From Candidatus Thorarchaeota archaeon (GTDB taxonomy: Archaea; Asgardarchaeota; Thorarchaeia; Thorarchaeales; Thorarchaeaceae): a stretch of DNA of 52,354 nt. Made by a program: the position numbers and the translations under genes. Under the pieces are notes generated by a model. It did not search any database and was not told where the DNA came from. It saw only the letters and a program-made list of their open reading frames with translations. The stretch lies in the NCBI GenBank assembly GCA_016933575.1, contig JAFGAR010000121.1, positions 1-52,354 on the forward strand, read 5' to 3'. Shown here in pieces: positions 1 to 52,354 of the stretch (position 1 is the stretch's first letter; each line of letters starts with the position of its first letter).

Positions 1-24
1 ACCGTTCATTGTAAATTGGACAAA

Positions 25-213
25 CTTGGACACCAGAGTGATGTCCTCCCAGAAACGGCACTGGGAACGACTCTGTGAGGTCAGATGGGTGTCAGGACAA
101 CCTCACGATCCTATCGTGAGGTCGTTGCATTTGAGGACCTATAAGAGCGGTTCAAACAACCATCAAAGAGCTGTCCAACTCTGTCCAGTATTTCAGTAGC
201 TGTTGTCAACCCT
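25..213. repeat. Structured non-coding repeat, copy 1 (~189 nt); inverted, diverged copy at 52161-52348
   Basis: Perfect reverse-complement blocks: 25-40 vs 52333-52348 (16 nt), 54-65 vs 52307-52318 (12 nt), 69-85 vs 52288-52304 (17 nt). 191-213 vs 52161-52183 match 21/23. Internal stems TTGGACA/TGTCCAA, CAGAGT/ACTCTG, CCCAG/CTGGG, TGAGGT/ACCTCA. Confidence 0.9.
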
Positions 214-1117
214 CTGCAACGAAGGCTGATGCAAAGAGATCAAATAACGGTTCTATGTCAGCAGTGTCTAGCTCTTTGTAGACATATTTGCACATGTCAA
301 TGAACCTGTTGGCTCGCTCATCAGCGAATTCGCCTATACCGATTATCTTCCTTGTTCTCTTCGTCAGTTCCTTCACAACACCTTTGGCGCTCTTGTCCAC
401 TCCAAAGGCCTTCTCAGTATCCTGCTCGATTCTTTGAAGGACACTCTTTACACGAATATCAGAGATGTCGTCACTACCAAAGCTCTTCACGAGGTCCATC
501 AAGACATCTAGAATTCCATTGTGCAATCCTGCAACTAATGCTTCAATCTCGAATGCTGTGAATCTTACGGTTCCCTCTTCACCTTGAAGTTGCCATTTCA
601 GGTCACTTGTCCTATCAACAAGGAGTCGTTTTTGACCAACCATTATCACTTCATGATAGAATCTTGAGTTGATACTGCTCTGAACTGCTGTCTTGACGAT
701 GGCTGCCTCTGGCAGTCTCAATCTGAACGAATTACCGCCATTTGTGACAACTAAACAGGCTCCACTGGATGGAGGTATCTTCTTGACATAATCCGAGGGT
801 GGTGCTACCTCGACCGGCGGCAGATGTCTTAGTTTTTCAGCAAGTTCTCGAATCTCTGGTTCTGTACAGATGTATGTCTGCCTATCACCCGAGATTGTGA
901 TTGTTCCATCATCAGCACGAACGAAATCAATCTTATTTCCTCCTCCGACATTTGTTGTCTTGAGATAGGTCTGTTTATGATTTCTTGCTGTCTGAGCGAG
1001 TTTTTCTAGCGCGGCTGCGACCATATGGGCCTCGCCAAATCCCATCGTAATCTCTGCATCTCCCTCAGTACCACGACCGATACCGAGTGATCCATCTTGG
1101 CGTATCTTAACATACAT
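206..1117 (-). CDS. Hypothetical protein with repeated beta-strand/helix units and a helical C-terminal domain
   Basis: Long ORF (track 206..1183). Probable start MYVKIRQ at 1117 behind a GGTGGTGGA RBS. No recognisable catalytic motif. Confidence 0.8.
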   Translation of the reverse strand: MYVKIRQDGSLGIGRGTEGDAEITMGFGEAHMVAAALEKLAQTARNHKQTYLKTTNVGGGNKIDFVRADDGTITISGDRQTYICTEPEIRELAEKLRHLPPVEVAPPSDYVKKIPPSSGACLVVTNGGNSFRLRLPEAAIVKTAVQSSINSRFYHEVIMVGQKRLLVDRTSDLKWQLQGEEGTVRFTAFEIEALVAGLHNGILDVLMDLVKSFGSDDISDIRVKSVLQRIEQDTEKAFGVDKSAKGVVKELTKRTRKIIGIGEFADERANRFIDMCKYVYKELDTADIEPLFDLFASAFVAEG

Positions 1118-1433
1118 ACTTTCCACCACCAAAACGATATCATATCTCCAAAAAACTATTGCTCTCATAGGTTGAATGAGCAATAATATGAAAAGGGCGA
1201 CCTTTCTGCCCTCTGCAATTGAAAATTGATGTCGACCATAATGAGATGAGTACTATTTCAGAGCATGAGGAGCAAAGTACTGAATGTCCATTTACACAAC
1301 CTCATGGGAAGAAATTTGGCAATGCCCTTATAGCTCTGATGTTGCTTATTATCCCCTTACTAGTAATAATCGTGCTATTTCTAAATTAATGTAGAAACTG
1401 CAAAAGACAATGAATCTTCTGCAGTTCTAGATA

Positions 1434-50840: not shown

Positions 50841-52133
50841 TTGACTGATACGCCAAAACTTGGATACATTGGCAAGATTCGTCTATTCAAACGGGATGCG
50901 CGGCTCTATATCGTCATCATGTCAACTAGTGCCTTTGCTAATGGTATAAACAGCGTTGTATTCAATCTCTATCTAGAAGGCGATGGTATTCACTCTGCGG
51001 ATTTCATTGGTTTCTTCCTCTCAATCTCGATGTTTGCTACAGCTGGTATATCGTTCATAGCAGGACTGGTCACAGATAGAAGTAGTAGGAAACAGATCAT
51101 TCTTCTAGCTAATCTTATCTCTTTCATCTGTGTTGCTATTCAATACTTGACACTTGATAGCCTTGCACTTGTTTCATCAGCTGTTCTCATCGGTCTCTCT
51201 GGTGCTTTCTCACAGGTCGCATGGTCTCCCTATATCACAGATCTGTCCACGGATGAGGAACGAGCTCATCTATTCGGATTCAGTCAAGGAATTGCACTTC
51301 TTGCAGTATTTGCTGGCAATCTATTCGGAGGATTTTTGCCAGGACTTTTCTCAAGTATTCTTGGTGTACTACCTGAAAGTATACCTGCCTATCGACTAAC
51401 ATTACTCTTTACACTAATTCCATCTCTTATCTCACTATTTCTGATCATCCTAATGAGCAGTGATACACCTACCTCTTCAACCACTCAACTTAGTATTAAG
51501 AATGTCACGAATTGGAGTTTTATTGGAAAGTACGCAACAACAGTAACAACTGTGGGTCTAGGCGCTGGAGTCATAGTGATGTTCTTCAATCTCTTCTTTA
51601 AATACCAATTCTCTGCGAGTTCAGAACTAATTGGTATAATTTTTGGAATCAATACGATTATACTCTCAAGCGGGAACTTCATTGCACCTTGGTTAGCCGA
51701 TCGCATTGGTAAAGTGAAGACTGTAGTATTTACAGAAGCACTATCAATACCATTTCTCCTGATGATTGGTCTTGCAGACAGTCTTCCTTTGGCCGTTACA
51801 GGTTATGTGGCTCGAAGTGTACTCATGAACATGTCCGGTCCAGTTTCAAACGCACTCTTCATGGAAGGTTTAACTAAGGAAGAACGTGCGACAGCAGTAG
51901 GAGTAGTTAGAACTGGTGACTCTCTAGTTCGGGGTATTGCTGCCAATATCGGTGGGTGGTTACTAGCGATGGGATTGTATCGCATACCCTACTTCCTCGT
52001 TGCTGGTCTCTATGTGCTAGCAATCATTTTGTTCTATACTTTCTTCAAGAACAAGGAACGAGAGATACAAATACGTAAGGAAGTGGAGTTAATCACTCCT
52101 AAGAAAGTTGAACATGCACCTGATATCACTTGA
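50841..52133 (+). CDS. MFS transporter
   Basis: ~12 TM helices; motif A-like GLVTDRSSRK and WLADRIGK. Confidence 0.92.
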   Translation: MTDTPKLGYIGKIRLFKRDARLYIVIMSTSAFANGINSVVFNLYLEGDGIHSADFIGFFLSISMFATAGISFIAGLVTDRSSRKQIILLANLISFICVAIQYLTLDSLALVSSAVLIGLSGAFSQVAWSPYITDLSTDEERAHLFGFSQGIALLAVFAGNLFGGFLPGLFSSILGVLPESIPAYRLTLLFTLIPSLISLFLIILMSSDTPTSSTTQLSIKNVTNWSFIGKYATTVTTVGLGAGVIVMFFNLFFKYQFSASSELIGIIFGINTIILSSGNFIAPWLADRIGKVKTVVFTEALSIPFLLMIGLADSLPLAVTGYVARSVLMNMSGPVSNALFMEGLTKEERATAVGVVRTGDSLVRGIAANIGGWLLAMGLYRIPYFLVAGLYVLAIILFYTFFKNKEREIQIRKEVELITPKKVEHAPDIT

Positions 52134-52160
52134 TGAAGAATTGTTTCTAATTGGTGTGAC

Positions 52161-52348
52161 AGGGTTGTCAACAGCTGCTGAAACCTTGGACAATGTTGGA
52201 CATCTCGTAGATGAGTCTTTGAGAGAACATAGTGGACCTTTTCTAGTCCAGTCCGGTGATTCAAGCATGAGGTCGAAACAACACAGCTCTGACCTCACAG
52301 AGTCCACCCAGTGCCGTTCCCTGGGGGTACAACACTCTGGTGTCCAAG
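52161..52348. repeat. Structured non-coding repeat, copy 2 (~188 nt), inverted relative to 25-213
   Basis: See copy 1; begins 27 nt after the MFS stop and runs to the window end. Confidence 0.9.
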
Positions 52349-52354
52349 ATCGTA

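Follow-up and report, generated by a model that had tools for sequence, protein, structure and literature searches.

What is the repeat that closes this piece of DNA at both of its ends? The window, i.e. the whole stretch of 52,354 nucleotides that was analysed, is an entire contig (C101) of a Candidatus Thorarchaeota assembly (3.47 Mb, 215 contigs, 85.5% complete, 6.9% contamination), and at both ends the assembly breaks inside a copy of the repeat, as the original prediction had inferred. The inverted homologs of 189 and 188 nt that it described are approximately 70% identical (BLASTN E 5e-14) and indeed share perfect blocks of 16, 12 and 17 nt and a 21/23 block. They had been read as a dispersed family, either a MITE or a programmable guide RNA such as the TnpB omega RNA, and these two readings turned out to be both right and to concern the same object, with IS607 ends and an RNA model that matches at the 3' end of tnpB. 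Very probably, the repeat is a non-autonomous IS607-family mini-transposon with a self-promoted TnpB omega RNA. It has both IS607 ends, (A/T)GG|G-T insertion sites without target duplication, a TATA box, and a covarying, pseudoknotted RNA that ends at the right end. The element measures 207-208 bp, is free of protein genes and retains only the transposon ends, the promoter and the folded RNA. Its parts in the window are the following.

2..209, minus strand: left copy, gene-less IS607-type mini-transposon of 208 bp, which begins directly after the host GG and includes the terminal GG; borders are sharp in the alignment of 16 genome matches and agree with the empty site in genome G006
165..209, minus strand: left end of the left copy, with two TTGGACA-type repeats (188-182 and 178-172) 10 bp apart; its profile matches directly upstream of IS607 tnpA in relatives
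16..32, minus strand: right-end repeats of the left copy (32-26 and 22-16), inverted relative to the left-end pair; they double as pseudoknot strands
1..1, minus strand: first base of the predicted flank-derived guide of the left copy; the remainder lies past the contig end
52165..52354, plus strand: right copy, belonging to the second subfamily, 17 bp short of its right end; together with contig C140 it amounts to 207 bp
52186..52202, plus strand: left-end repeats of the right copy (52186-52192 and 52196-52202)

One copy had been placed at 25-213; the repeat there is real, but the element extends from 2 to 209, and the start at 25 reflects the point where the shortened right copy stops. The left contig end is the first flank base of the left copy and has no overlapping contig in the assembly. 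The right contig end overlaps contigs C140 and C142 by 69 nt, and the gene order in three relatives favours C140, not C142, as its continuation. The guides of both window copies are absent from the window, since the flanking host DNA lies beyond the contig ends.

The proposed dispersed family exists. BLASTN and nhmmer found 16 further whole or partial matches in the genome, many of them at contig ends, and counting left ends gives approximately 14 elements, which form mainly two subfamilies. A window copy shares 84-97% identity with its closest siblings elsewhere in the genome and only 63-69% with the other subfamily. The variable core of constant length that had been taken as a sign of programmability is thus divergence between subfamilies, and relatives of the element range from 175 to 217 bp. 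The element is common in Thorarchaeota. Of the 36 genomes of the family, 22 contain related sequence, compared with none of the 24 more distant genomes searched; exact-pattern matches in public genomes carry the labels Thorarchaeota, Promethearchaeota or unclassified archaea. Within one MAG, copies that are nearly identical have different flanks, which points to recent mobility. A lone 54-bp left end, with neither promoter nor RNA behind it, was also seen (G000:C184:10212-10265).

The ends reveal the parent. IS607 elements have unrelated termini, an imperfect inverted repeat at unequal distances, short phased motifs and GG junctions, and make no duplication (PMC6188088). Likewise, the present element has no terminal inverted repeats, and its ends are common to serine-recombinase elements. 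In relatives, the profile of its short end matches a few dozen bases upstream of the genes for IS607 transposases, i.e. serine recombinases of the MerR-HTH type, one of which scores 194.9 bits on NF033518 (cut-off 110). The profile of the other end matches the last codons of tnpB genes encoding proteins of 710-760 aa with three intact RuvC acidic motifs (GVDRG, FEDL, ADVN), which remain below the IS607_TnpB cut-off (31 vs 350 bits). Full parents of approximately 8 kb consist of tnpA, then a gene for 1600-1870 aa on the opposite strand, then tnpB. The large gene (L091:92-8053, L093, L094, L095, L097, L099, L100) has a PD-(D/E)xK-like motif and no match in NCBIfam or Pfam. As judged from the sequence, the TTGGACA-type repeats of the left end are likely TnpA binding sites. 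What the original prediction drew as a closing helix, TTGGACA/TGTCCAA, consists of two inverted repeats of the DNA ends; the left arm is situated ahead of the promoter, and where the outer right-end repeat has changed, the left-end repeats show no matching change. Further derivatives that arose from the parent by internal deletion were found as well (L066:1417-2141, L090:3258-3830, L088:2666-5310), including an in-frame tnpA-tnpB fusion of 210 aa.

The insertion sites and host genes of the two copies are as follows.

210..214, minus strand: target motif GAGGG of the left copy; its last GG is the crossover core and likely the TnpB TAM (predicted from the IS607 GG rule, PMC6188088, and from the TAMs of other IS607 TnpBs)
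52160..52164, plus strand: target motif CAGGG of the right copy
206..1183, minus strand: conserved host gene of the left copy, with the element in its last codon; protein end unchanged
50841..52133, plus strand: host gene for an MFS transporter; 31 bp separate its end from the right copy

Insertion occurs into (A/T)GGG. The 14 left junctions in the genome comprise 11 AGGG, two TGGG and one GGGG; the sequence logo of the insertion sites is partly forced by the search pattern. Other IS607 TnpBs use the TAMs TGGG and GAGGG. Among 75 copies, 93% have a T directly after the right end, and the flank beyond +1 is unconserved. The host gene at 206..1183 encodes a protein of approximately 300 aa, 68-84% conserved across the genus, with orthologues in 26 of 27 genus genomes and no match in Pfam or NCBIfam. 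Empty sites, which the original prediction had suggested to look for, were found for the left copy in G006 and for a sibling on contig C139 in three relatives. The orthologue in G006 ends GAG GGT TAA (E-G-stop), and the window gene ends GCA GAG GGT TGA, where the TGA (208-206) is supplied by the element; by this comparison, the left copy brings a new stop and leaves the protein end unchanged. For the copies on C57 and C51, gap lengths in relatives fit the absence of an element, at junctions too diverged to be read. None of the orthologues of the MFS gene carries the element, and the junction there is not alignable.

The interior of the element is a transcription unit in prediction.

128..135, minus strand: TATA-box position of the left copy, degenerate (CTCAAATG vs TTTAAATA in siblings)
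52239..52246, plus strand: TATA-box position of the right copy, degenerate (TTTTCTAG; the siblings on C34 and C56 have TTTTATAG)
2..105, minus strand: predicted omega-RNA scaffold of the left copy; pair counts are from 58 copies, and the model matches at the tnpB 3' end in 12 parents
105-99/82-76, 75-70/39-34 and 65-61/52-48, minus strand: hairpin and two stems of the left copy
93-89/33-29, 46-42/22-18 and loop 59-56 with the 3' end 4-1, minus strand: three pseudoknots of the left copy
52268..52354, plus strand: predicted omega-RNA scaffold of the right copy
52268-52274/52291-52297, 52298-52303/52334-52339 and 52307-52311/52321-52325, plus strand: hairpin and two stems of the right copy, with the pseudoknot loop at 52312-52318
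100..122, no strand: perfect 10-bp palindrome private to the left copy, absent from the siblings on C212, C215, C139 and C163

Of 66 non-redundant copies, 54 have a TATA-like box at a distance of 132-138 nt ahead of the right end. Conservation is 87% in the columns of the box, 49% in the 21-nt spacer after it and, except for one loop, approximately 90% in the RNA that follows. From the TATA position and archaeal promoter geometry, the RNA should start near window position 105 on the minus strand. It would be approximately 105 nt long, with three hairpins and three pseudoknots. Across 58 copies 93.6% of cells are paired and 18 pairs show two-sided changes; none of 500 shuffles comes as high, and slid controls give 32-43%. 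The percentage leans towards the model because the structure was drawn from the same sequences, and the two-sided changes are the better evidence. The base that varies in the internal loop has its partner in the outer right-end repeat (G-C in 30, U-A in 15, C-G in 12 and one mismatch among 58 copies), corresponding to approximately 14 changes on a weakly resolved tree, and the two window copies have G-C and U-A. Pairs also form between the apical loop and the end of the element beside the guide; the core pairs of this helix exist in 56-57 of 57 copies, and so little variation makes its covariation support weak. Both copies had been expected to fold in the same way. The two inner hairpins exist and covary, but minimum-energy folding is significant only for the RNA strand of the left copy (z -3.35; right copy z -0.15). 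Rfam contains no match for the element. The covariance model matches the tnpB 3' end in the 12 parents with E values from 1e-11 to 0.02 and leaves other TnpB loci unmatched. As far as sequence comparison goes, the assignment as a TnpB omega RNA whose guide would be supplied by the flank holds. The palindrome of the left copy is probably a template-switch mutation. It belongs to a cluster of changes private to this copy (window 100-137), which also spoils the TATA box and covers the start site.

Could the RNA nevertheless be a functionless relic inside a plain IS607 MITE, in which only the DNA ends matter? We regard this as unlikely. In its favour, no partner proteins were found in this genome and the TATA boxes of both window copies are decayed; moreover, the 3' third of the RNA coincides with the end that TnpA binds, and the strong conservation of the right end serves this binding as well. 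However, compensatory changes occur in all six helices among the protein-less copies, including helices outside the end repeats, and the TATA box keeps a fixed distance while the spacer drifts. Less probable still is a domestication of the RNA, either as a host regulatory RNA antisense to its neighbours or as a bank of guides that steers TnpB to foreign DNA in the service of the host. As had been predicted for the window, both copies lie just downstream of a co-oriented gene, and so do 12 of the 14 copies in this genome, which together would offer approximately 14 different guides. But 42 pooled loci with crude ORF calls give no orientation bias, the sites are empty in relatives, and the element is unevenly distributed across the genus (14 of 27 genomes). 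Furthermore, second genomic targets of ten guides occur only at chance level (11-12 of 12 matches), and the viral contigs and plasmids searched contain no copy. The bridge RNA idea, i.e. an IS110/IS1111 derivative in which target and donor are set by the internal loops of a bridge or seek RNA, can practically be dismissed despite the sub-terminal inverted repeats at unequal distances, the internal loops and four IS110 recombinases in the genome, since the internal segments match their own site no better than others (in 48 copies the longest match averages 6.0 nt vs 5.98 nt), the variable loop base has its partner within the element, the IS110 loci of the genome have no such ends, and the parents found for the ends are serine-recombinase/TnpB elements. 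Those four recombinases are on contigs of 1.5-2.3 kb (G000:C128, C117, C81, C96) and may be bin contamination. A PATE, i.e. an IS200/IS605 derivative, was rejected as well: palindromic ends for a HUH transposase are missing and the ends are of the IS607 type, but the element would work like a PATE.

For the IS607 mini-transposon with its omega RNA, IS607 biology suggests the following course. A serine recombinase TnpA from elsewhere would bind the end repeats and excise or insert the element between GG sites, and the RNA would read on into the flank, which would become the guide. TnpB made elsewhere would load this RNA and cut the vacated site, given a GGG motif and a guide match, and recombinational repair would then copy the element back. 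Such a restoration by TnpB cut and repair was shown for IS605 and IS607 elements (10.1101/2023.11.20.567912; 10.1101/2023.03.14.532601). The relatives contain possible scars: 8 of 78 copies, from approximately 5-6 independent loci, carry a second copy of 6-11 nt of the guide flank directly behind the left GG, where 0.26 are expected. Hence, approximately 10% of the copies in relatives are an exception to the rule of no duplication; neither window copy has such a scar. The scars could also stem from the giant cargo protein or from aberrant insertion instead of TnpB. Left ends that begin with the 6-11 nt duplicate of the downstream flank were seen in L206:4606, L014:1665, L013, L019, L003, L200 and L239; some scarred copies also have no left end, which hints at a second route of installation. 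A HEAT-like ORF beside the copy in L014 was considered as transposase partner and is a host gene.

Neither a cognate TnpA nor a cognate TnpB was found in this assembly with its 215 contigs and 85.5% completeness. Among the genus genomes, a cognate TnpB is present in 11 of 14 with the element and in 0 of 13 without it, counts from kin that are not independent; together with the scars, they lend the proposed course indirect support. Three TnpBs on contig C64 were rejected as partners; they belong to another clade, have another RNA end and no match to the RNA model. At these loci (L251, L252, L253) a homologous giant gene (1622-1772 aa) is paired with a different TnpB (559-564 aa), and two of the three have a downstream TTCACTCA motif like the aCas1-associated TnpBs of PMC10691335. 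The absence of cognate partners, the damaged TATA boxes and the palindrome over the start in the left copy count against activity in this genome, and both window copies are probably quiet or decaying members.

Where did a gene-less element obtain a promoter? In 28 of 29 parents the start of tnpB contains a hairpin with covarying stem and a loop resembling the pseudoknot loop (4% in shuffles), in the order TATA box, approximately 23 nt, ribosome-binding motif, start codon and then the hairpin. The profile of the 5' half of the mini-element scores tnpB starts with up to 13.6 bits (shuffles at most 3.5). Beyond the hairpin follow a copy of the scaffold 3' motif and then 13 nt that agree with the sequence immediately upstream of the own tnpB promoter at 11 or more of 13 positions in 20 of 28 parents, several misses being parsing errors, compared with 15 of 756 non-cognate pairs. 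The motif copy and the promoter-upstream match together suggest that the tnpB start is a degenerate omega RNA aimed at its own promoter. Such a copy in the coding 5' end of tnpB was seen in L091:5799-6050, L094, L096, L100, L107 and L270-L288, with a leader guide of 13-16 nt matching the DNA just upstream of the own TATA box. RNA-guided self-repression is thus a candidate mode of control for tnpB. A literature search, mostly outside subscription journals, found no paper on TnpB autorepression and none on the element in Thorarchaeota. We infer from these similarities that promoter and leader of the mini-element derive from the tnpB start. The parent of approximately 8 kb may have become the mini-element by two deletions, one that joined the left end to the tnpB promoter and one that ran from the degenerate scaffold, where tnpB begins, to the true scaffold, where it ends; the exact junctions cannot be placed.

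Taken further, the mini-elements would be active guide cassettes kept for a purpose, born by recombination of a self-repressing mini omega RNA at the tnpB start with the true omega RNA at the tnpB end. They would express the triple-pseudoknot scaffold of approximately 105 nt from the tnpB promoter, borrow the large TnpB in trans for their own reinstallation, with target duplications left behind as scars. This extended reading is tentative, and we give it somewhat less than an even chance. If true, a natural minimal scaffold would be available for a large Asgard TnpB, and there would be a worked example of how a single guide per transposon gives way to many guides at dispersed sites. In any case, the element presents a naturally minimised, covariation-supported guide scaffold for an oversized Asgard TnpB, and since scaffold, predicted TAM and dozens of natural guide/target pairs are at hand, the system could be reconstituted directly. 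It also indicates a route by which a stand-alone omega RNA can gain a promoter, points to RNA-guided self-control of tnpB in the parent, and helps to test how stand-alone omega RNAs function in trans.

Compared with known systems, the element resembles the IS607 family (IS607, IS1535, ISC1926; PMC6188088) in its unrelated termini, the sub-terminal inverted repeat at unequal distances, the helically phased short motifs, the GG core, the absence of target duplication and a parent encoding serine TnpA and TnpB. It differs in being gene-less with approximately 208 bp, and its parent in carrying the 1600-1870 aa gene between tnpA and tnpB. Omega RNAs of IS607 elements have a loop-to-3'-end pseudoknot and a scaffold ending CGG (10.1101/2023.11.20.567912; 10.1101/2023.08.09.552727). 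The omega/reRNAs of CboIStron (10.1101/2023.11.20.567912), ISXfa1 (10.1101/2023.08.09.552727) and ISFba1/RAGATH-18 (PMC11061315) share with the predicted RNA the position at the right end, the final CGG, three stem-loops, that pseudoknot beside the guide, the end repeats inside the RNA and a G-rich TAM beside the left end, which is predicted for our element. In contrast to them, the present RNA is only approximately 105 nt long, has two further covarying pseudoknots and is without an Rfam match, and the element has its own TATA promoter, no tnpB in cis and no intron. The bridge RNA of IS110/IS1111 (PMC10849738) is likewise a structured RNA within a mobile element with internal loops and sub-terminal repeats, whereas here no match exists between loops and target DNA, the programmable sequence is external to the element and the partner is something other than a DEDD recombinase. 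Elements without protein genes whose omega RNAs would serve in trans were already described as PATE-like minimal IS200/IS605 elements and stand-alone omega RNAs (10.1101/2023.03.14.532601; PMC10691335). They are likewise protein-less mobile units, but our element uses the IS607 chassis with serine recombinase and double-stranded DNA instead of HUH-type palindromic ends, and an archaeal promoter apparently captured from tnpB. Hence, the general kind is known, and what sets this element apart is the IS607 chassis, the Asgard host, the compact triple-pseudoknot RNA and the tnpB promoter that was apparently captured.
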